A stretch of DNA of 64,000 nucleotides from Planctomycetota bacterium (GTDB lineage: Bacteria; Planctomycetota; PLA2; JAEUHO01). The translations under genes and the position numbers were made by a program. Where the stretch lies: positions 1 through 64,000 of the forward strand of contig CBDCWP010000007.1 in NCBI GenBank assembly GCA_965223505.1, in the 5' to 3' direction. This document shows, in pieces, positions 4 through 9,645 of this stretch (its first letter is position 1; every line of letters starts with the position of its first letter). Under the pieces are notes generated by a model. That model saw only the letters and a program-made list of their open reading frames with translations. It did no database searches and was not told where the DNA came from.

Positions 4-717
4 CTAGCGGGTCGCTCGCCAGCGGCGAGCAGCCGCGCCCCAGTCGATGTGCTTACAGAAGCGATCGACGTATGTGGCCTTGTCCGTGCGGTAGTCGACG
101 TAGAACGCGTGTTCGTACATGTCGACGAGCAACAGCGGCCGGCCGAACCACAACGGACCGACGTCGTGCGCGTCGGAGAGGACGTTGTACAGCCGGTCGT
201 TCAGCGGGTGCGCCGCCAGCATCGCCCATCCGCTGCATGAGAGCGCGCACGCTTCGAAGTCGGCCCGCCACCGATCCACCGAGCCGAAGCGGGCTTTCAG
301 CGCCGCAGTCAGGTCCTTCCCCGGTTCGCCTGCATCCGCACGCATGCCTTCGAAGTAGAGCTCGTGCAAGATCACCGAGTTGGCCTTCGCCGACTGGGTC
401 TTGCCCAGCGCGCGCCGCGCCGCGCGATCGGTCACGCCTTCGCCGCCGTAGAGCCGCTTCTCGATGCCCTCGAGCCCTTTCAGTGCACCGCCGTAGTGCT
501 TCGTGTGGTGCAGTCCGATCTGTTCCTTCGACAGGAATCCGGGCAGCGCCTCGTAGCGCAGGGGAACGAGTTCGCCCGATCGGAGTGCGGTCGTCGGCTC
601 GGCCTCCTCGGCGCGCGCGGCGCGCACGTCACCGAGCCAAGCGGCCGACGTTGCTGCAATGCCGGCGAGCGTGGCGCTGCCGATCAGGTCTCGTCGCGTG
701 AAGTTGCGTGCATCCAT
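4..717 (-). CDS. Fe/Mn superoxide dismutase family protein with Tat signal peptide
   Basis: Likely start MDARNFTRRDLIG (twin-arginine) at 717. SOD motifs LHHTKHYGG, LHELYF, FGSVDRW, SGWAML and DMYEHAFYVDY. The upstream part of the 542-aa track ORF is shadow of the + strand gene. Confidence 0.85.
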   Translation of the reverse strand: MDARNFTRRDLIGSATLAGIAATSAAWLGDVRAARAEEAEPTTALRSGELVPLRYEALPGFLSKEQIGLHHTKHYGGALKGLEGIEKRLYGGEGVTDRAARRALGKTQSAKANSVILHELYFEGMRADAGEPGKDLTAALKARFGSVDRWRADFEACALSCSGWAMLAAHPLNDRLYNVLSDAHDVGPLWFGRPLLLVDMYEHAFYVDYRTDKATYVDRFCKHIDWGAAARRWRATR

Positions 718-825
718 GGCGATCTCCTCGGCCCGAGCACACCACGGCCGCCGGCCGACGTCCTCTGACAAAGTCTTCAGGAACTCGTAAGGCCCGCCCG
801 GCTGCTCGCCGGGGAAGATGTGCAG

Positions 826-1935
826 ATGCAAGCGAACCGATACGTCTTCCGGATCACCGTCCTCGTACTTCTCGCGTCGTTGACGCCGGCGGCTGCCGAA
901 GAGCCGGCCGAGCCCGATCTCGCGACCGCCATCGCCGAGAGTCCTCTCGAGCTGTGGGAGGCGGTCACGCGCGGCGGGGCGCGAAACGGCGCGACGCTGC
1001 GCGCGGGTTTCGCGCTCGACACGAACGGCAGGCTCGTCCTGCGCATGCTCGTTCGCACTGTGAAGGACGAGGCGGAACGCTTCGAAGAGTGGCGCGGGCC
1101 GCTCTACGACCAGGTGTGGGCGCCCCGGCGCCGCGTCCTCGCGGACGGGGAGGAGATCGCGAACGCGAGGAGACTCGACGACCTCGTGCGCAAGAGCAAG
1201 CGCACGCTCAGCACCGCGGTGACCTCGTCGCGCGGCGTGCAACGTGAAGACGAGTCCTGGCCCGGCGTGCCCGTGTCCATCGAGCCGACACTTCGAGACG
1301 GCGAGGTGCGCACCGAGGCGATCGTGATCATCGACAGTCGGTACTACCGGGTCACCCAGATCCTCGACTCCGGCATCATCCTCTCGACGAAGCCCGCGGA
1401 GGAACCGGTGCGCATCGAAGCCGATCCGCCGCGCACGTTGCCCGAGCTCACCGTTCCCGACGGAATCTGGGTCAACGCCGGGGAGCCGCCGACGCTGGCG
1501 AGCTGGAAGGGGAGTCCCATCCTCGTCGCCGTCGCCGATCCGGGGTGAGACACCTGACACAACATCACGCCGAACCTGGTCAGGTGGCACAAGCAATACG
1601 CATCCGCTGGATTGAAGATCGTCGCCGTTCAAGGCGCGAAACCCCGCCTCTCCACGAAGGATCCGCAGGAGGAGATCCGCAAGACCAAGGAGTGGGTCGA
1701 GCGGAAGGACCCTCCGTTCCCCGTTCTCGTCGATCCGACCGCGGCCTACTACGACGCGATCGGCTTCCCCGCGGGACCGTACCCGGTTCTCGTCCTCGTC
1801 GATCCGAAAGGAATCGTCGTCTGGATGGGGGGGACCGGCATTCGCCGGGAAGCGGAGGTGTGTGACGGCGCGCTTGCGCGCCTCATGAGCGGAGCGAAGA
1901 AAAAAGCCGCTGGCTCGGACGCGCTGCCGCGCTGA
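826..1935 (+). CDS. Exported TlpA/thioredoxin-fold selenoprotein with UxxU active site (two in-frame TGA = Sec) and an N-terminal PepSY-like region
   Basis: Track ORFs 820-1548 and 1612-1935 are in the same frame. The joining sequence reads LASWKGSPILVAVADPG-TGA(1546)-DT-TGA(1555)-HNITPNLVRWHKQYASAGLKIVAV, followed by FPVLVDP and YPVLVLVDPKGIV, a TlpA-like fold with the TGAs at the CxxC position. Signal peptide at the N-terminus and a SECIS-like hairpin downstream. Start at ATG 826 or GTG 820. Confidence 0.85.
1569..1588 (+). promoter_or_regulatory. Bacterial SECIS element (Sec insertion hairpin)
   Basis: GCC-GA-ACCT-GGTC-AGGT-GGC begins 11 nt after the second TGA. It has the same GGUC apical loop, a bulged 5' arm and the same 11-nt offset as the E. 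coli fdhF SECIS. Confidence 0.75.
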
Positions 1936-1946
1936 TCCTTGGGCGC

Positions 1947-2633
1947 GTGCGCATCCTGGTGATCGAGGACGAGGAGAAGATCGCGGCGGCCCTTGCGGAG
2001 GGTCTCGCGTCGGCCGGTTACGACGTCGCGGTCGCGAACACGGGTGAGGACGGGTTCTTCCGTTTCGTCTCCCGGCCGTGCGATCTCGTCATTCTCGACT
2101 GGATGCTCCCGGGTCGCGACGGCATCGAGATCCTGGAGACCATCCGGAAGCAGGGACGCGACACGCCCGTGCTCCTGCTCACGGCGCGCGACGCGGTGGA
2201 GGACCGCGTGCGCGGTCTCGACGCCGGCGCGGACGACTACCTCGTCAAGCCGTTCGCGTTTCCCGAGCTCGAGGCGCGGGTTCGCGCCTTGCTGCGACGC
2301 GCGCCCGCCGACACGCAGCAACGCTTCGAGGTGGGCGACCTGCATCTCGACGTTGCGCGGCGCCGTGTGGAGCGCGACGGACGGCCGGTCACGTTGACGC
2401 TGCGCGAGTTCGACCTGCTGCACTATCTCATGCAGCACGCCGGGCACGTCGTCTCGCGGGAGATGCTCGCCAAGGACGTGTGGGAGGAGACCGCGCGGGC
2501 GACGCCGCTCGACAACGTCATCGACGTCCACATGGCCCGACTGCGCAAGAAGGTCGACACGGATCCCGACGCGCGCCTGATCGAGACCGTGCGCGGCGTT
2601 GGATTCGTGCTGCGCGCGGGAGACGACGTATGA
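1947..2633 (+). CDS. OmpR/CusR-family response regulator
   Basis: MRILVIEDE, LDWMLPG, LTARD and DDYLVKPF receiver motifs plus winged-helix IETVRGVGF. Confidence 0.95.
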   Translation: MRILVIEDEEKIAAALAEGLASAGYDVAVANTGEDGFFRFVSRPCDLVILDWMLPGRDGIEILETIRKQGRDTPVLLLTARDAVEDRVRGLDAGADDYLVKPFAFPELEARVRALLRRAPADTQQRFEVGDLHLDVARRRVERDGRPVTLTLREFDLLHYLMQHAGHVVSREMLAKDVWEETARATPLDNVIDVHMARLRKKVDTDPDARLIETVRGVGFVLRAGDDV

Positions 2634-3946
2634 GCCTCGTGCCGCGCAGCATTCGCTCCCGTTTGGCACTCGGCTACGCGGCGGCCGTGGCGGTTACGGT
2701 GCTCGTCTACGCCGGCGTCGTCTACGGGTTCACCCGATCGGCGCTGATCGACCGGCTCGACGCGGCCCTTCGAGACGACTTCGAGCGCGCGGAGCACGCG
2801 TTCGAGATCGACGTCACCGGTGCGCTCAGCTGGAAGGAGCCCGAGCGCTTGGGGCACCACGACACGGCGGAGGCGCCGTGGACGCAGGTCCTGCATCCGA
2901 AGGGCGGCCCAGGCCTGCTCCGTCCGTCGAACGCCGACGTCGGCGACGCGTCGTATCGGGTCTTCGAGGAGGACTACTTGATCGCGGGCGAGACGTACCG
3001 CATCCGCGTCGGCCGGTCCATGGCTCCGATGGAGGCGGAGTTGAGCGGCCTGCGCACGCTCCTGGCGTTGTGCCTGCTGCCGGTGGTCGGGTTCGCGTGG
3101 CTGGGCGGGCTCCTGCTCGCGCGGCGTGCGCTTCAGCCCGTCCAGGACATGACGGAGCGCGCCCGGCACATCGGCGCCGAACGCTTGTCCGAGCGACTGC
3201 CGGTCGCGAACCCCGACGACGAGCTCGGGCGTCTCGCGACGGTGTTCAACGCAGCGTTCGAGCGCATCGAGGCGGGGTTCGAGCGACTGCGTGGGTTCAC
3301 GTCGGATGCCGCGCACGAGCTTCGCACGCCGCTCGCGGCGCTTCGAACCGTGGGGGAGGTCGGACTGGGGTCGTCGCAGGACGTCGAAGCGCACCGCGAG
3401 GTGATCGCGAGCATGCTGGAAGAGACCGCACGGCTGACCCGCCTGGTCGACGAGCTGCTGGAGCTCTCACGGGGCGACGCAAGGATGGCGGGGATCGAGA
3501 AGGCGCCGGTCGACCTCGCGGAGCTGTCGCGTTCGGTTTGCGAGCAGCTCGAAGTGCTCGCGTCGGAACGCGGGCAGGAGCTGGTCGTCGAAGGCGGCGG
3601 GGCGACCGTGCCCGGCGACGCGAACATGCTTCGCAGAGCGGTCACGAATCTCGTCGACAACGCGATTCGACACGGGCCGACGTCGTCCACGGTCCGGGTG
3701 CGGGTCGAGGAAGCAGCTGCGGAGGCCGTGATCGTGGTGGCGGACGAGGGAACGCCGATCCCGGCGAACCATCGGGAACGGATCTTCGATCGCCTCTACC
3801 GCATCGACGCGGCGCGTGCCGGCGCCGGAACGGGGCTGGGCCTCTCGCTCGCGGCCCAGGCAATCGAGCTCCACGGCGGCCGCATCGAGATCGAAGCGCG
3901 CGCCGAGGGCAACGCGTTTCGCGTGACCCTGCCCCGCGGCGGGTGA
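2630..3946 (+). CDS. HAMP-domain sensor histidine kinase (CusS/heavy-metal-sensor-like)
   Basis: ATGA overlap with the regulator stop codon. Two TM helices, HAMP domain, H-box AHELRTPL, N-box NLVDNAIRH and G-box GTGLGL. Confidence 0.92.
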   Translation: MSLVPRSIRSRLALGYAAAVAVTVLVYAGVVYGFTRSALIDRLDAALRDDFERAEHAFEIDVTGALSWKEPERLGHHDTAEAPWTQVLHPKGGPGLLRPSNADVGDASYRVFEEDYLIAGETYRIRVGRSMAPMEAELSGLRTLLALCLLPVVGFAWLGGLLLARRALQPVQDMTERARHIGAERLSERLPVANPDDELGRLATVFNAAFERIEAGFERLRGFTSDAAHELRTPLAALRTVGEVGLGSSQDVEAHREVIASMLEETARLTRLVDELLELSRGDARMAGIEKAPVDLAELSRSVCEQLEVLASERGQELVVEGGGATVPGDANMLRRAVTNLVDNAIRHGPTSSTVRVRVEEAAAEAVIVVADEGTPIPANHRERIFDRLYRIDAARAGAGTGLGLSLAAQAIELHGGRIEIEARAEGNAFRVTLPRGG

Positions 3947-3950
3947 TCCG

Positions 3951-5966
3951 CTACTGGACCTGGGCCGCGACCGGCGCGTCGAACGCCGTCTTGATCAGGA
4001 CCACGTCCTGCTGGCCCTTGCACGCGACCGCGAGGTACATCGGATTGCCCGGCAGGATGACGATGTCCGCGAGGCCTTGCAGGCCGGGCATCGTCCCTTG
4101 GATCGCCTGGACCACGGCGCCGCTTGCGTCGAGCCGGCCGAGCCACCAGTGCCCTGTCGTGTCCGACGCGACAGCGACGGCCGTCGTGCCGTCGTCGAGG
4201 GCGGCCATGTCGATCTCGAGCGGATCGGCCAGCGGGTTCGATGCGAACGTGTGCGTGCCGATCGGCGTGGGCGCCGACGTTCCGTTCCAGGTCAGGATGG
4301 TCAACGTGTTCGAGCCGTAGTTCGAGACCACCGCGACGCCGTTCTTGGCGCGCACTCTCCGTTGGTCGTTGCCGCCCGATGCGATCAGAGCGCCTTCGGC
4401 GCTCGCATCGATGCGATCGTGGTACCAGATCTGGCCTGGGGATCCGCTCATCGCGACGATCACTCCGCCTCCGGCGGCCGAGTAGACGAACGCGCTGACC
4501 GGATCGCCCGTGCGGTTCGGGAAGTTGACGTCGCCGCCCAGTGCGCCGGACGGAATCGGCGTTTGGAAGAAGTCGATGGCGTCGTCGAACTGCTGGAAGC
4601 CGACGACGATGCCGGCTGTGAGGCTCACGCCCGTCGACCTCGAGGTCCCGCCGAACGAAACCAGATCCCGTACGCCGCTCGAGACCGCAAGACCGCCCCA
4701 GTTCGCGCCTGCCCAGTGGGAGCGCGCGAAGCCGACGGGGTTCCACACGTACAGGGCGCGCGTGAGGTCGGCGTCGTCGCCGGCCGACACGGGCACGACG
4801 TCGTCATCCACCGCGGTGAGGATGCCGATGTCCTGCACCTGAGGCGTGGCGACGATCGTGCCGGACGCGTCGCGCTCGATCGCGAAGGCCTTGACGCCGT
4901 TCACGTCCGGCCCCGAAACGTACAGCATGGGATGGGTGCCGACGACGGGCGGGTCGTTCACGAGGTCGAAGTGGGCCGGTGCGAGACCTGCGACGTCGAC
5001 ACCGGTCTGGATGCGAAGGCTGTTCCCGACCGTCACGTTCGCCGTGGCGGGGGTGACTTCCATCCGGTACTCGCCGATGCTCGAGTGATCGACGTCGACG
5101 AGGAACAGCAGGCCGCTCGGATCGAGGGCGAGCACGAATCCGACGCCGACGGTGAGTGCCGTCTCGCCTACCTGCGTGGCCTCGAATTGGATCTCTCCTT
5201 CGTGCGTGGTGCGTCCGTTCGCCTCTGTCCTCGTCGTCGGGACGGCATCTCCGACGTTCGAGAGCCATGCGACGTTCGGATTCCCGGCAAGCTCGATCAG
5301 CTCGAAGGCGATCGGAACGTCGTACGCGTTGCCGTGCTCGAACGAGTATCGCAGCGCCGAGGGGACGTTGATCTCCGGCGAGGGGGGTGCTTCGAACTTC
5401 CAGCCCAATGTGACGTTGTCGTCACCGGCGGCCGGCTGGTCCTTCTCGGTGAGCGCGCCGACGGCGACCTCGTCGAAGAAGACGCCCGCCATCCCGTGGA
5501 GAATGAACCCTTCCTCGTTGTCCCACTCGACCCTCTGATCGGGGATCACTACCCGATCGTCCTCGGTCCGTGCGTAGTACGACGTGATGTCGAGCTCGAT
5601 GAGCTCCTCGATGCTGATCCTGGAGAGGTCCGGTTTCTGGAGCGTGAGCGTCGCGGGCGTGTTGAAGCGCAGTGGCGGCGTGATGTCGAACACCCTGCCC
5701 ATGACCGCGTGGCCGGCGTTGAACCCCCAGATCTGCGGATCGAGATCATCCGGCGGCTTCTCCGTGATGTTGACCTCGGTGTCCTGGAACAGCGCTCCGG
5801 CCGGCACCTTCAGCGTCAGCGTCCCGTCGTTGGAGGTCAGCGTCCCGCCGTTCGCGCCCACGGTGCCGCGGATCTCGGTCAGCAGGCCGAGGCGAAAGAA
5901 CTCGTCGAACCCGCCGCCGCAGGCGGGGATGAAGAGCAACGACGTCAACCAGAGCGCACGCGACAT
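3951..5966 (-). CDS. Lipoprotein with a ZU5-like N-terminal domain and probable C-terminal beta-propeller
   Basis: Lipobox LFIPAC-GGG. GGTLTSNDGTLTLKVPAGAL...DITPPLRFNTPATLTL resembles ZU5-type domains. Beta-rich C-terminus. Confidence 0.6.
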   Translation of the reverse strand: MSRALWLTSLLFIPACGGGFDEFFRLGLLTEIRGTVGANGGTLTSNDGTLTLKVPAGALFQDTEVNITEKPPDDLDPQIWGFNAGHAVMGRVFDITPPLRFNTPATLTLQKPDLSRISIEELIELDITSYYARTEDDRVVIPDQRVEWDNEEGFILHGMAGVFFDEVAVGALTEKDQPAAGDDNVTLGWKFEAPPSPEINVPSALRYSFEHGNAYDVPIAFELIELAGNPNVAWLSNVGDAVPTTRTEANGRTTHEGEIQFEATQVGETALTVGVGFVLALDPSGLLFLVDVDHSSIGEYRMEVTPATANVTVGNSLRIQTGVDVAGLAPAHFDLVNDPPVVGTHPMLYVSGPDVNGVKAFAIERDASGTIVATPQVQDIGILTAVDDDVVPVSAGDDADLTRALYVWNPVGFARSHWAGANWGGLAVSSGVRDLVSFGGTSRSTGVSLTAGIVVGFQQFDDAIDFFQTPIPSGALGGDVNFPNRTGDPVSAFVYSAAGGGVIVAMSGSPGQIWYHDRIDASAEGALIASGGNDQRRVRAKNGVAVVSNYGSNTLTILTWNGTSAPTPIGTHTFASNPLADPLEIDMAALDDGTTAVAVASDTTGHWWLGRLDASGAVVQAIQGTMPGLQGLADIVILPGNPMYLAVACKGQQDVVLIKTAFDAPVAAQVQ

Positions 5967-6002
5967 GGCCGTCCTCCATCCGGGGCGCACGAACCGCGCG
6001 CC

Positions 6003-6029
6003 TAGGACCTAGTGGAAGAATCAGATTCC
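6003..6029 (-). promoter_or_regulatory. Possible ECF-type promoter (GGAATC-N15-GTCCTA) for the lipoprotein gene
   Basis: Motif lies in the short intergenic gap directly downstream of an ECF sigma gene. Confidence 0.35.
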
Positions 6030-6063
6030 GTCGGTACGGCAGACACGAATTCGAAGATCGTTC

Positions 6064-6648
6064 CTATGCGCCGCCACGCCGGCGAAGCGCCAGCTCGTAG
6101 GTCTTCTTGAAGCGCTCCTGCGCCCGGAGCCGCGCCCGCTGGGCCGCGGCCGCGGTGATGTCGAGCCGCTCGGCCGTCTCGTCGATCGAGAGGCCGCGGC
6201 AGATCGCCTCTACGAGCTCGCGGTCGCGCGCGGGAAGGAGCGCCAGCGCACTGGTCGCGATCTCGAGCCGGGCGCGTCGGTCGGCGAAGGTGGCGGGCCC
6301 CGTGAGCCGCGCCTCCGGATTCACGCCGGAGCCGCTGCCGGGATCGGTCGTGTCCCCGAACGTCACGCGCAGCATGGGACCCGCGTTGCGCTTGAGCGCG
6401 CGCCAGTACGCGGTTCGATTCGCGATGTGCTGGCGGCCGATCGCACGGATCCAGCCCATGAACGCGGCGTCGCCCAGGTATTCGAACCGGTCCGCCACCC
6501 GCAACGCGTGCAACGCGGCACCCTGGGCCAGGTCTTCGGCGCTCTCGTAGCGCAGCAGCCCGGACCCCTCGCGCCGCAGGTGGCGCACCAACTCCGCGTG
6601 ATGCCGCTCGAGCAGCTCAGCGAGACTGGGCTTGGAAGCCTCGGCCAC
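6064..6648 (-). CDS. ECF RNA polymerase sigma factor
   Basis: SAEDLAQ, FMGWIRAI and region 4 GLSIDETAERLDITAAAAQRARLRA. Confidence 0.85.
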   Translation of the reverse strand: MAEASKPSLAELLERHHAELVRHLRREGSGLLRYESAEDLAQGAALHALRVADRFEYLGDAAFMGWIRAIGRQHIANRTAYWRALKRNAGPMLRVTFGDTTDPGSGSGVNPEARLTGPATFADRRARLEIATSALALLPARDRELVEAICRGLSIDETAERLDITAAAAQRARLRAQERFKKTYELALRRRGGA

Positions 6649-6657
6649 GCCCGCCCG

Positions 6658-9645
6658 CTACTCGAGGTCCCGGCGGCGAAAGACGAGTCGGAAGCCGCAG
6701 TCACCGCCGGCGTGCTCGGGATCGCGAGGGTGTCGCGCCGTGGTCGAGAACTCCCACCCCCGGCCCCGCAGCACGGATCCCCCGGCGGCCATGCCGCTGA
6801 AGCCTCGGGTGCCATCCCAATCCATCCACTCGATCACGCTGCCGCACAGGTCGTAGACGCCGGCCGGCGACTCGTCGATTGGAAAGCTCATCACGGGGTC
6901 GTATCCGCGAAACTCGTGTGTGACGTGAAGCGAGCTCACCCACTTGGGCCGAAACACGTCGCCGTGGGCGAAGCCGGCGAACGAGTTCCCGTGCGCGGCC
7001 CCGCGATACTCCTCGTGGGTCGGGATGCGATACGGCCTGCCGTCGCGCGCTCCCCGCCAGGCCGCGTACGCCTTCGCGTCGGCCAGATCGAGTCCCCGCA
7101 CCGGACGGTCGGGTCGCCACGTCGGCGGAAGCTCGAAACGGCCGTGTTCGTTGCGAATCCAGTGTCCGCCGGAGGCGGTGTTGAGCTGGTCGTCGCGTGG
7201 GTAGCGGATGTACCGGCCCTCTTCGAGGGCCGCGTCGATCTCCGCGAGGACCGCGGGGTCGTTGAGGAATTCGAGATACTCGGCGTTCGTCACCTCCCGC
7301 TCCTGCATCCAAAACGCGTCTTCGTCCGTACCGCGGACCGAGATGTAGACGAATCCCGGCGGCGTGGTCCCGATCGGGAGGGGCTTCAAGTCGTACCACT
7401 CGTCCCATCCGCCGCGGATCTTGCGCTGCAGGATCTGGTCTTCGTATCCCTTCCTGCGAAGGAGGAAGACATAGCGTCCGGGTTCGAGCGGATACGCTTC
7501 CGTCGGCGTGATGCCGATCCGGCTGCCGGGAGACGCGAACAGCGGCACGGCGGTCGTTCGTACGACGAGGCCGACCGGAAGCTGCATCTCGCGAACCACA
7601 CCGTCCTGGTAGACGCGGGCGGGCACGTTACCGCGCTCGGCGACGGCGGCCGCCGAGAGCACCTCGATGGGGGGCCGGTTCCAGCGCACCTCGAACTCGC
7701 GATCGTCCCTTGCGAAGACGTAGCGATGGGGACCGGGCGCGTCGGGCGGTCTGCCGTCGAGCATCAGCCGAATGCGACGCTTCCCGATGGCGACGAGGCG
7801 GTCCCCCCGGCGCACCTCGCCGTGCGAATCGGCGGCGAGGAAGGTGGCCTCGATCGGATGCCCGAACACCTCCAGAATCTGATCGCCCTGACGTAGATCA
7901 CCCGCGCCGCGCACGACACGAAGCGTCCACGTTCCCGGCAGGACCGGCGTCTCGCCGCGCACCGGCACCGGGACCAGCCGCCGGTCCCCGCCCGGGTCGA
8001 GGTCCCGCTGCACGTCGTGACGAAACGCGTGCAGCTCGAAACCCGCGGGGGTCGTGGACGCCCTGATCGAGCCGGACTTCAACAGCGCGCCGGTGTACCG
8101 CCCGTCGGGATCGTACTTGGCGATCTCGGCGCGATAGCGACGCACCGCCGCCTCGTTGGCCTGCGTGCGTGCTTCCTCCATGCGCTCCAACCAGAGCCGA
8201 GCCGTCACCTCGTCGACGCCGGGGACGTCGCGATCCCGTTGCTGCGCCTGATGCAGCAGCTCCAACACCCGGCTGAACATCAGGTCGCGCTCGGTGCCGG
8301 CCTTCTCACCCCGGTCCGTCATATCTTCCAGCTGACGGTCCTGCTCTTCGGTGGTGTGTCTGGACTCGTACCGCAGGAGCAGCTCACGAAAGCCCTCGTC
8401 GTAGTCCTTGCTGTCGATGCGCGCTTCTCGATAGTCGGCCAGCACCCCGCGCGCCCGCTCGACGAGTTGCAGCGCCTCCTGCCTCCGCTCGGCAGCTCGT
8501 TGCGCGCTGCCGTAGATCAGCAGCGCCACGATGGTCAGGACCGCGACCAGCAGGCCGGATACGGCGGTCGCCGTCACGGGTCTGCGACGTGTCCACTTTC
8601 GCAGCCGGGTGATCGGACCCGGTGCTCGCGCTCGGACGGGGCGCGATCGCGAGAGCGCCTCGAGGTCGTCGGCGAACGCCGACATGTCGTCGTAGCGCGC
8701 CGACGGCTTCTTCTCCATGGCCTTGAGGACGACGAGGTCGGCGTCGCGCGGCACGGATGGGTTGAGTCGCGACGGCGGCACGGCGTCTTCCAGCAACACC
8801 TGGCGGAAGACGCCTTCCAGCGTCTTGCCACGGAAGGGCAGGCCGCCCGTCACGCACTCGTACGCCGTGATGCCGAGCAGGTACACGTCGGTGCGGGCGT
8901 CGACGTCGCCGCCCTTGATCTGCTCGGGCGCGGCGTAGAGCGGCGAGCCCGCGAAGCTCTTGGTGAGGCGGGTGGCTTCGAGGCCGGTCATGTGGGCGAT
9001 GCCGAAGTCCAACAGCACGGCCCGGTCGTCCGGCGTGATGAGCACGTTGCTCGGCTTGACGTCGCGATGGACGATGCCCTGCTTGTGCGCGTACGCGAGT
9101 GCCCGGGCGAGCTGGGCCATCCACTGAAACAGGCGGTGGATGGGGATCGCGGTTCCTTCCTCGCGCAGGATCTCGGCGAGGGACCTGCCCGGAACGAACT
9201 CCATCGCGATGAACTGAACGTCCTGGTCCTCGGCGAGCTCGTAGACGCTCACGACGGCGGGGTGACGCAGCTGCGCGATCGCGCGCGCTTCGCGGCGGAA
9301 GCGCCGCAGCATGGTCGCCGAGGCGCCGAGCTCCGGACGCACGATCTTCAGCGCCACGATTCGACCGAGCGCCTCTTGCTCGGCCAGGAACACCGTTCCC
9401 ATACCACCCGTTCCCAGGCGGCGAACGAGTCGATACCCGCCGAGCCGCTCGAAGGGGAGTTCACCGTCGGCGTCGGACGACGCGGCGACGTACTCGCGAT
9501 GAAGCGCGTGGACGAGCTCGCGCATCTCGGTATCGACGTCGGGGTAGCGTGCGAGATAGAGATCGGGTTCTTCGGGACAACCGTCGAGGCAGGTCGCCAG
9601 ATACGCGTCGTAGACGTCCGTTGGATCGCGCGGGTCGGCGGCCAT
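6658..9645 (-). CDS. Membrane Ser/Thr protein kinase with C-terminal formylglycine-generating-enzyme (FGE-sulfatase) domain
   Basis: Start MAADPRDP. Kinase motifs LGTGGMGTV, VALK, HRDVKPSN, DFG and APEQ. One TM helix. FGE motifs EVTNAEYLEF, YRIPTHEEY, GVYDLCGSVIEW and GFRLV. Confidence 0.9.
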   Translation of the reverse strand: MAADPRDPTDVYDAYLATCLDGCPEEPDLYLARYPDVDTEMRELVHALHREYVAASSDADGELPFERLGGYRLVRRLGTGGMGTVFLAEQEALGRIVALKIVRPELGASATMLRRFRREARAIAQLRHPAVVSVYELAEDQDVQFIAMEFVPGRSLAEILREEGTAIPIHRLFQWMAQLARALAYAHKQGIVHRDVKPSNVLITPDDRAVLLDFGIAHMTGLEATRLTKSFAGSPLYAAPEQIKGGDVDARTDVYLLGITAYECVTGGLPFRGKTLEGVFRQVLLEDAVPPSRLNPSVPRDADLVVLKAMEKKPSARYDDMSAFADDLEALSRSRPVRARAPGPITRLRKWTRRRPVTATAVSGLLVAVLTIVALLIYGSAQRAAERRQEALQLVERARGVLADYREARIDSKDYDEGFRELLLRYESRHTTEEQDRQLEDMTDRGEKAGTERDLMFSRVLELLHQAQQRDRDVPGVDEVTARLWLERMEEARTQANEAAVRRYRAEIAKYDPDGRYTGALLKSGSIRASTTPAGFELHAFRHDVQRDLDPGGDRRLVPVPVRGETPVLPGTWTLRVVRGAGDLRQGDQILEVFGHPIEATFLAADSHGEVRRGDRLVAIGKRRIRLMLDGRPPDAPGPHRYVFARDDREFEVRWNRPPIEVLSAAAVAERGNVPARVYQDGVVREMQLPVGLVVRTTAVPLFASPGSRIGITPTEAYPLEPGRYVFLLRRKGYEDQILQRKIRGGWDEWYDLKPLPIGTTPPGFVYISVRGTDEDAFWMQEREVTNAEYLEFLNDPAVLAEIDAALEEGRYIRYPRDDQLNTASGGHWIRNEHGRFELPPTWRPDRPVRGLDLADAKAYAAWRGARDGRPYRIPTHEEYRGAAHGNSFAGFAHGDVFRPKWVSSLHVTHEFRGYDPVMSFPIDESPAGVYDLCGSVIEWMDWDGTRGFSGMAAGGSVLRGRGWEFSTTARHPRDPEHAGGDCGFRLVFRRRDLE

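Follow-up and report, generated by a model that had tools for sequence, protein, structure and literature searches.

The window, that is, the whole stretch of 64,000 nucleotides of Planctomycetota DNA that was analysed, contains a well-supported gene for a protein with two selenocysteines (Sec, U). The gene, P0023, is located at positions 826 to 1935 on the plus strand and encodes 369 amino acids, in which a predicted signal peptide is followed by a tandem PepSY-like module and a TlpA-type thioredoxin domain with a UxxU redox site. UxxU in the PF00578 fold was already known; the fusion to a PepSY-like module, a third cysteine and the link to an operon appear to be undescribed. The read-through protein had been proposed in the original prediction; new beyond it are the SECIS-like hairpin, the two-component operon, the upstream box and the invariant third cysteine.

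Two UGA codons and a common hairpin

From the ATG at 826 to position 1932 the frame specifies 369 residues including U241 and U244, and it ends at a true stop (TGA, 1933 to 1935). Two open reading frames, 820 to 1548 and 1612 to 1935, had been proposed to share one frame and to be parted only by TGA codons, and the sequence and the ORF list confirmed this: the sole interruptions are the TGA at 1546 to 1548, assigned to Sec241 at the first redox position, and the TGA at 1555 to 1557, assigned to Sec244 at the second, with GAC ACC between them. Across the whole genome, 11 of 1309 coding-like TGA ends are followed, three codons later, by another TGA in frame; a coding-like frame continues in two of these 11, the present gene and a WD40 gene described below.

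Both codons recur in the family. DNA over the motif was available for eight distinct family loci, with identical proteins counted once (L061 = L022, L072 = L023, L066 = L025, L097 = L024). The first position is TGA in seven of the eight, the second is TGA in six, TGC in one and a shifted cysteine in one. This corresponds to six UxxU sites (UDTU in the window, L022, L023 and L081, UDYU in L074, UDGU in L082), one UxxC (UEAC, L025) and one CxxxC (CELEC, L024), so that the homologs have TGA or cysteine at both positions, as had been anticipated; both TGAs are kept in orthologs of 45–49% identity. Assembled contigs from the runs X1 and X2 were checked for TGC or TGT and cover both TGAs with no other letter, but both runs belong to one study, maybe the assembly's own source, and are thus not independent.

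The machinery for Sec incorporation is present. In the genome, which is 92% complete, selA, selB and selD were found above their cut-offs, selD itself with one in-frame TGA, together with one tRNA-Sec with the anticodon TCA. SelB and SelA were present in all five related genomes tested, four of which carry the family. An altered genetic code was ruled out, with 735 of 1874 long ORFs ending in TGA. The read-through is thus supported by the single frame, the TGAs at the CxxC positions of ResA (see below), the TGAs of the orthologs and the Sec machinery, and none of the three contrary results named beforehand (no Sec genes, homologs that stop there or lack Cys and Sec, TGC or TGT in place of TGA) turned up.

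A SECIS-like hairpin common to both UGAs is located at 1569 to 1588 (plus strand). Its distance to the first UGA is 29 nt and to the second 20 nt, and its loop of 4 nt (1578 to 1581) starts with GG. The rule given in PMC13188914 for bacterial SECIS asks for a loop of 3–9 nt, a G in the first two loop positions, a distance of 16–37 nt from the UGA and an energy of at most -7.5 kcal/mol. Loop, G and distance of the window hairpin agree with this rule, and its energy of -7.2 kcal/mol narrowly misses the threshold, which is passed by five of seven Sec-type members (28-nt slice). Compared with shuffled sequences the hairpin showed no significant excess of stability (z -0.58 to -1.74 and 0.40). Since energy alone is weak, the case for a SECIS is built on conservation. 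In the four Sec-type genes from the protein search, a 17-nt run over the hairpin is the sole invariant run of at least 8 bases, and degenerate codons are fixed in 3/3 cases inside the run versus 0/37 outside; one of the fixed codons is AGG, which accounts for 2616 of the 86,854 Arg codons of the genome. The CxxxC ortholog L024 is without the 17-nt run.

The first alignment offered no block of sufficient conservation for scanning loci, and DNA patterns were used instead, in which the first TGA and the hairpin core are fixed and TGA, TGC or TGT is permitted at the second position. L074, L081 and L082 were found by forcing the pattern and were therefore left out of the count of hairpin conservation. 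The pattern search yielded 19 loci, all of them in Planctomycetota records: four belong to the fused family (three UxxU, one UxxC) and the remaining 15 are different TlpA genes, all UxxC. The UxxC ortholog and these 15 unrelated genes have the hairpin at an equivalent position, and its location in the UxxC ortholog suggests that the second Sec needed no new element. L056–L059, L062–L065 and L067–L071 represent a separate Planctomycetota TlpA family, whose members have this hairpin core too and carry UxxC (mostly UESC), followed by a second thioredoxin-like part.

Taken together, both UGAs are very probably read as Sec through SelB acting on one hairpin located at the usual distance from each, since selA, selB, selC and selD are present, the hairpin is conserved and relatives break off at the first TGA. 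It is improbable that either UGA, or both, is decoded as cysteine via SelC*/tRNA-ReC, which would make the site of the protein UxxC or CxxC. A tRNA-ReC has been reported in about 56% of the genomes having UXXU hydrogenases (PMC13582414), and with 92% completeness a tRNA could be missing from the assembly; against this, the genome has just one RF01852 match over the cut-off, one SelB over the cut-off and, among 66 tRNA calls at default settings, one with TCA and one tRNA-Cys, and no second Sec-like tRNA was found in the 92% complete genome, where relaxed tRNA scans gave noise only. The idea of a pseudogene, of an error in sequencing or of genuine termination at 1548, followed by a small independent gene, deserves hardly any credence: a 240-aa product does stand in the databases and the hairpin is no more stable than shuffles, but this explanation is already contradicted by the ortholog set, in which both TGAs are kept in six loci with identity down to about 30–49%, the downstream frame is conserved and one member has TGC at the second position, and the contigs agree.

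For UXXU hydrogenases a single SECIS for two UGAs has been proposed, not shown (PMC13582414), and the present gene offers a compact test of whether one coding-region SECIS serves two UGAs nine bases apart. An alternative stem of 8 bp was observed at 1551 to 1585 of the window, in which the second UGA pairs with the 3' arm of the hairpin (fold -15.1 kcal/mol); 8/8 pairs form in the window and 6–8 of the 8 in seven genes. This stem might hide the SECIS on untranslated mRNA, and it may also be a mere reflection of codon constraints.

The genome contains further candidates. A second UxxU gene encodes a WD40 propeller with the motif G-U-G-P-U and an N-terminal hydrophobic stretch (P0028; G000:C30:182703-183716, plus strand, equal to L085:2704-3717). 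Of the 39 other genomes searched in the order, two contain orthologs (L089, L090; 32–35% identity), in which both TGAs are kept and a hairpin is conserved. The 119-family table of PMC13188914 contains no WD40 family, and this gene is possibly more novel than the PepSY-thioredoxin gene. The whole genome (G000) yielded 49 read-through candidates; 29 pass a loose Cys-motif filter, many of them thioredoxin-like UxxC proteins, and two close UxxC TlpA paralogs are located on contigs C34 and C39. The tRNA search also gave two odd calls, a Leu tRNA with AAG anticodon (89 nt) and a 91-nt tRNA without assigned type, at G000:C12:6550-6638 and C13:102042-102132.

Domains, redox site and family

The N-terminus resembles a signal peptide (residues 1 to 24, 826 to 897, plus strand), ending in Ala-Ala-Ala, with the cleavage site read by eye. 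Hydropathy peaks at 2.54 within the first 30 residues and three orthologs have similar peaks, which supports the original prediction of an exported protein; export thus appears probable from sequence. An AlphaFold2 model of the whole protein, built with a 19-row alignment, reached a pLDDT of 90.9 and a pTM of 0.83.

The region behind the signal (residues 29 to 196; 910 to 1413, plus strand), described as PepSY-like by eye before, forms a putative tandem PepSY-like module according to fold comparison of the model. Modelled alone it reached a pLDDT of 94.3. Foldseek placed 4exr on top (E 7e-4, the only match under 0.001), and the best four of 48,161 chains in VIA-align were FoxB (Z 8.6, rmsd 5.7, 136 aligned), 4exr (Z 7.5, rmsd 5.4, 146 aligned), YpmB (Z 6.4, rmsd 1.6, 60 aligned) and YpeB (Z 5.6, rmsd 7.0, 95 aligned). 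YpmB and YpeB contain PepSY domains. According to PMC9988556, 4exr is also the best match of the two-PepSY protein LanP; UipA, a PepSY protein from the same report, gave Z 4.3 against the module. Pfam and NCBIfam returned no family for the window module and the structure Atlas no usable match. The relative P0016 scored 19.5 bits against PF03413, below the cut-off of 24, and a stand-alone relative matched, with a score of 0.88, a cluster in which 31% of the members carry PepSY. We therefore have fair confidence in the modelled module working like a tandem PepSY: the Z values are middling and no Pfam family was matched; the weight lies in the agreement of the structural matches. The fused N domains are near neutral, with 30 acidic and 26 basic residues, which argues against an acidic metal sponge.

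The second domain (residues 200 to 362; 1423 to 1911, plus strand) is a thioredoxin domain of the TlpA/ResA/DsbE type, as had been predicted. The read-through protein matches PF00578 with 46.4 bits (cut-off 26) and PF08534 with 35.1 bits (cut-off 26.6); P0024 and P0027 reach 41 and 26.6 bits for PF00578 (cut-off 26). The structure prediction yielded a thioredoxin fold that matches TlpA/ResA/DsbE-type chains, the C-terminal domain of the model aligning with 3gl3 at a VIA-align Z of 17.5 (rmsd 1.9, 136 aligned). U241 and U244 align with the cysteines of the CEPC motif of ResA, which bears out that both TGAs fall on the two Cys positions, and P320 aligns with the proline preceding the next strand. 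The scores stayed below the curated NCBIfam cut-offs for ResA (23.4 of 170), TlpA (16.2 of 230) and WAxxUGC (19.3 of 300). The sole cysteine of the protein, Cys346, is located in the C-terminal helix (1861 to 1863, plus strand); its equivalent is present in 10/10 full-length members, and the UxxC outgroup genes lack it.

U241 and U244 would form a diselenide. Diselenides have been reported to have very low potentials (PMC2397514); being hard to reduce, their turnover is not assured, which counts against a redox switch. The same genome encodes a DsbD-type protein with DsbD_N, DsbD_TM and Thioredoxin_7 domains and an in-frame TGA in a UxxC motif (L098:808-2865, G000:C11). This Sec-bearing protein is a candidate reductant for the UxxU site, and the pair bears on the question raised in PMC2397514 of how a cell turns over a diselenide.

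Word-indexed protein searches gave two matches each, and the family was recovered by exhaustive and genome searches. With the N-terminal region as query, the exhaustive search returned 20 matches. Fourteen of them, including the window's own product, end exactly before the first TGA, which makes the family invisible to motif searches; the second redox position is known for three of these 14. The other six comprise two full-length CxxxC proteins, two duplicated N domains without a thioredoxin part, one fragment and one unrelated protein. Profile searches found the fused gene in 5/40 genomes of the order (the class search covered the same 40), and among 401 genomes of the phylum eight matched, three with the fused gene and five with stand-alone N-domain genes (six loci). 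No plain CxxC member was present among the fused-family sequences found. In the N-domain tree, which L082 entered as P0021, a 94/90 split separates all six known UxxU members from the UxxC, CxxxC and stand-alone rows. This fits a single origin of UxxU as far as sequence goes, with a split that falls short of the 95 mark; a tree of the thioredoxin domain did not resolve the order of the motif changes. Natural UxxU, UxxC and CxxxC orthologs are thus available for comparison.

The operon and the proposed function

Directly downstream, an OmpR-family response regulator (1947 to 2633, plus strand) and a sensor histidine kinase with a small periplasmic domain (2630 to 3946, plus strand) are located. 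Their best-matching families are the heavy-metal types CusR/CopR (TIGR01387, 249.3 bits, cut-off 279.2) and CusS/CopS (TIGR01386, 282.4 bits, cut-off 292.55), in both cases below the cut-off. According to the alignment, the periplasmic part of the kinase spans roughly residues 33 to 141, about 100 residues, with no cysteine and with conserved acidic residues. The regulator follows directly in 6/8 fused loci and the kinase comes next in all five that extend far enough; the sequence of L081 stops 38 bases past the gene end. The UxxU locus L082 has no regulator within 128 downstream bases and no box (see below) in its full upstream gap, which speaks against a fixed link of the fused gene to the regulator.

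Upstream, a divergent gene of the Fe/Mn superoxide dismutase family (4 to 717, minus strand; Sod_Fe_C 81.5 bits, Sod_Fe_N 29.9 bits) has a twin-arginine-like N-terminus, read by eye. It recurs at three other fused loci with 63–70% identity, thus at 4/6 longer loci. Between the two genes, a box consisting of an inverted repeat and a direct repeat with an 11-bp period is located at 764 to 792 (plus strand); it is present in 5/6 aligned upstream regions. With a matrix from the four other loci, the window box ranked first of 10,307,096 genome positions (33.8; next 20.5). A five-site matrix, whose scores are not strictly comparable with those of the four-site matrix, gave 40.3 for L074 and 31.9, 29.5, 26.4, 16.1, 14.5 and 11.0 for the six stand-alone loci, of which three are clear, two marginal though well placed and one not significant. 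The operator consensus of CusR/CopR has been reported as TGACA-N4-TGTCA (PMC12428095), and the window box has the same spacing, an exact first half and 3/5 matches in the second. The box is likely to be the site of the downstream response regulator. A search for a sigma-70 promoter gave no match.

In 2/6 loci the stand-alone N-domain genes are preceded by a regulator and a kinase of this type, and in 4/6 they are located beside chrA/chrB, with no kinase in the available DNA; a ChrB C-terminal-domain gene adjoins a fifth. They represent an unnamed secreted tandem-PepSY-like family (L076, L078, L079, L080, more widely L092 and L094–L096, as well as L075 and L077), in whose neighbourhood chrA/chrB, a CusRS-like pair or an exported superoxide dismutase is encoded, with the box in common. 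A chromate role in the present host is unsupported: chrA is located on a different contig and has no box in its vicinity (best 9.9), and a ChrB_C search of the genome found no match, with the control silent too. At the UxxC ortholog locus, merR, merT/HMA and thioredoxin-like genes are located directly behind the superoxide dismutase (L066:832-3333). An AhpC/TSA protein adjoins the stand-alone gene of L078 (717-1442, minus strand), and its called frame ends at Ala-Asp-Trp within a strand of thioredoxin-like type; this end may be another Sec codon. Further downstream in the window (3954 to 9645, minus strand), a ZU5-like lipoprotein-type gene, an ECF sigma factor and a Ser/Thr kinase with an FGE-sulfatase domain form a typical planctomycete cluster that is unrelated to the double-Sec gene.

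The reading that we favour, though with limited confidence, is that the protein acts in the periplasm as a partner of the kinase, much as DbfQ does, and has acquired a diselenide redox domain, with the UxxU site reporting periplasmic oxidant or soft-metal load. The fused gene heads an operon with the CusR/CusS-like pair, which probably activates its own promoter via the box, and the same regulator would probably activate the divergent superoxide dismutase through it. The PepSY pair would dock on the small periplasmic domain of the kinase, as DbfQ does on DbfS. The UxxU site would switch between diselenol and diselenide, or get blocked by a soft metal or oxyanion, its state would alter the kinase/phosphatase balance, and the DsbD-type protein would re-reduce it. 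In the simplest history, a DbfQ-like module would have acquired a TlpA domain and then two Sec.

A partnership with the kinase is suggested because the regulator adjoins in 6/8 fused loci and the kinase in all five that can be judged, and because fused and stand-alone genes have the box in common, two of the six latter with a kinase. The DbfQ precedent, the cysteine-free periplasmic part of the kinase with its conserved acidic residues and the near-neutral N domains, unlike the acidic UipA and LanP, point in the same direction. Against it stand L082 without box or adjacent regulator and the four of six stand-alone genes that are located by chrA/chrB without a kinase, which equally fits an effector. 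Furthermore, DbfQ is small, with a single PepSY and no redox domain, the PepSY call depends on middling Z values (5.6–8.6) and no Pfam family, and regulator and kinase are below the heavy-metal cut-offs.

Such an effector would be an exported double-Sec oxidoreductase that is induced by the two-component pair and repairs or reduces periplasmic targets in metal or oxidative stress alongside the superoxide dismutase, the PepSY pair merely recruiting a substrate or a metal. We consider this possible yet doubtful. It would explain the TlpA/ResA fold, the divergent superoxide dismutase in four of the six longer loci, the chrA/chrB and ChrB neighbours of five stand-alone genes, the merR/merT-type genes beside L066 and the missing regulator of L082, and the tandem PepSY proteins UipA and LanP have been reported to bind metals (PMC9988556). 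Yet the stand-alone genes, which are without a redox domain, keep the box and in two of six loci the kinase, and PepSY genes have been reported as >60-fold enriched beside two-component pairs (PMC12714742).

Selenium might also tune the two-component system twice: the diselenide domain, kept on the cysteine-free kinase by the PepSY pair, would be its actual sensor, and the selenium supply would determine which form of the accessory protein is made and how much regulator and kinase. We regard this as rather unlikely; it is suggested by the exported PepSY-only protein that a stop at the first UGA would give and by the regulator start, which is located 11 nt behind the stretch then left untranslated. 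It is likewise unlikely, and a little more so, that U241, U244 and C346, instead of serving as a catalytic redox pair plus a bystander, together bind a soft ion, for instance Cu(I), Hg(II) or As(III), through a site of three chalcogens. All 10 full-length members have C346, which the UxxC outgroup genes lack, CxxxC replaces UxxU in three members, and the regulator and the box resemble the CusR/CopR system with its TGACA-N4-TGTCA operator. The CxxxC spacing is that of the copper-binding Sco proteins. On the other hand, the helix pattern suggests a buried position for C346, and the protein retains the proline ahead of the third strand that redox-active relatives also have. Should the PepSY pair bind the kinase, as we tentatively propose, a selenoprotein would act as sensing partner of a two-component system, a role not found in the 119-family catalogue of PMC13188914.

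Comparison with known systems

The closest known selenoproteins are the Prx-like thiol:disulfide oxidoreductases with PF00578 and UxxC/UxxU, which are listed in PMC9312934 and in the 119-family table of PMC13188914. Further UxxU families are tabulated in the same two reviews, and ocean data have yielded Prx-like sequences with UxxU (PMC2398784). Common to them and to the family described here are PF00578 over the cut-off, UxxU as well as UxxC forms and a SECIS in the coding region. Compared by table rows (representative WP_010940744.1), the present family differs in the extra PepSY-like module, the third invariant cysteine and the two-component operon. The suggestion of an undescribed diselenide family thus holds in part: UxxU in this fold is known, but the architecture and the operon link are absent from the 119-family table of PMC13188914. 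The words PepSY, WD40, propeller and Planctomycet are likewise absent from the main text of that review, and our search, in a collection without most subscription papers, found no paper on a double-Sec PepSY-TlpA architecture; BSepDB (as described in PMC13326102), deep-Sep and supplements could hold members under the PF00578 label.

The original prediction had named the rare SelL as the known case of UxxU. SelL is indeed such a case, but the motif is not confined to it, as the PF00578 rows with UxxC/UxxU demonstrate. Both proteins have a thioredoxin-like fold with two Sec, and a diselenide has been reported for SelL (PMC2397514). The proposed difference from SelL was upheld: the window protein fails the SelL profiles (NF040769, 12 of 120 bits; PF13911, 17.6 of 27), and together with the different architecture this indicates a parallel case and not a member of SelL.

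With TlpA, ResA and DsbE the protein has in common the fold, the positions of the redox pair, the proline and export, which is predicted here. It has two Sec, with Asp-Pro-Gly ahead of the pair, and a cleavable-looking signal with a PepSY module in place of the bare membrane anchor. UipA and LanP (PMC9988556) likewise have two PepSY domains and are exported, as is predicted for our protein, and 4exr is the top match for LanP as well as for the module. Those proteins are strongly acidic metal binders, whereas the module described here has a near-neutral charge and is joined to a redox domain.

A system similar in gene order is DbfQRS of Vibrio cholerae (PMC12714742), in which DbfQ, a secreted PepSY protein, has been reported to bind the sensor domain of the kinase DbfS 1:1 with a Kd of 30 nM. 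In both systems a secreted PepSY protein (predicted here) is encoded directly upstream of a regulator and a kinase. The operon is autoregulated in Vibrio, and the box suggests autoregulation here. Binding to the kinase was shown for DbfQ, whereas for the present protein it is a proposal. DbfQ has 135 aa and one PepSY with neither redox domain nor Sec, whereas the protein described here has 369 aa and carries a thioredoxin domain.
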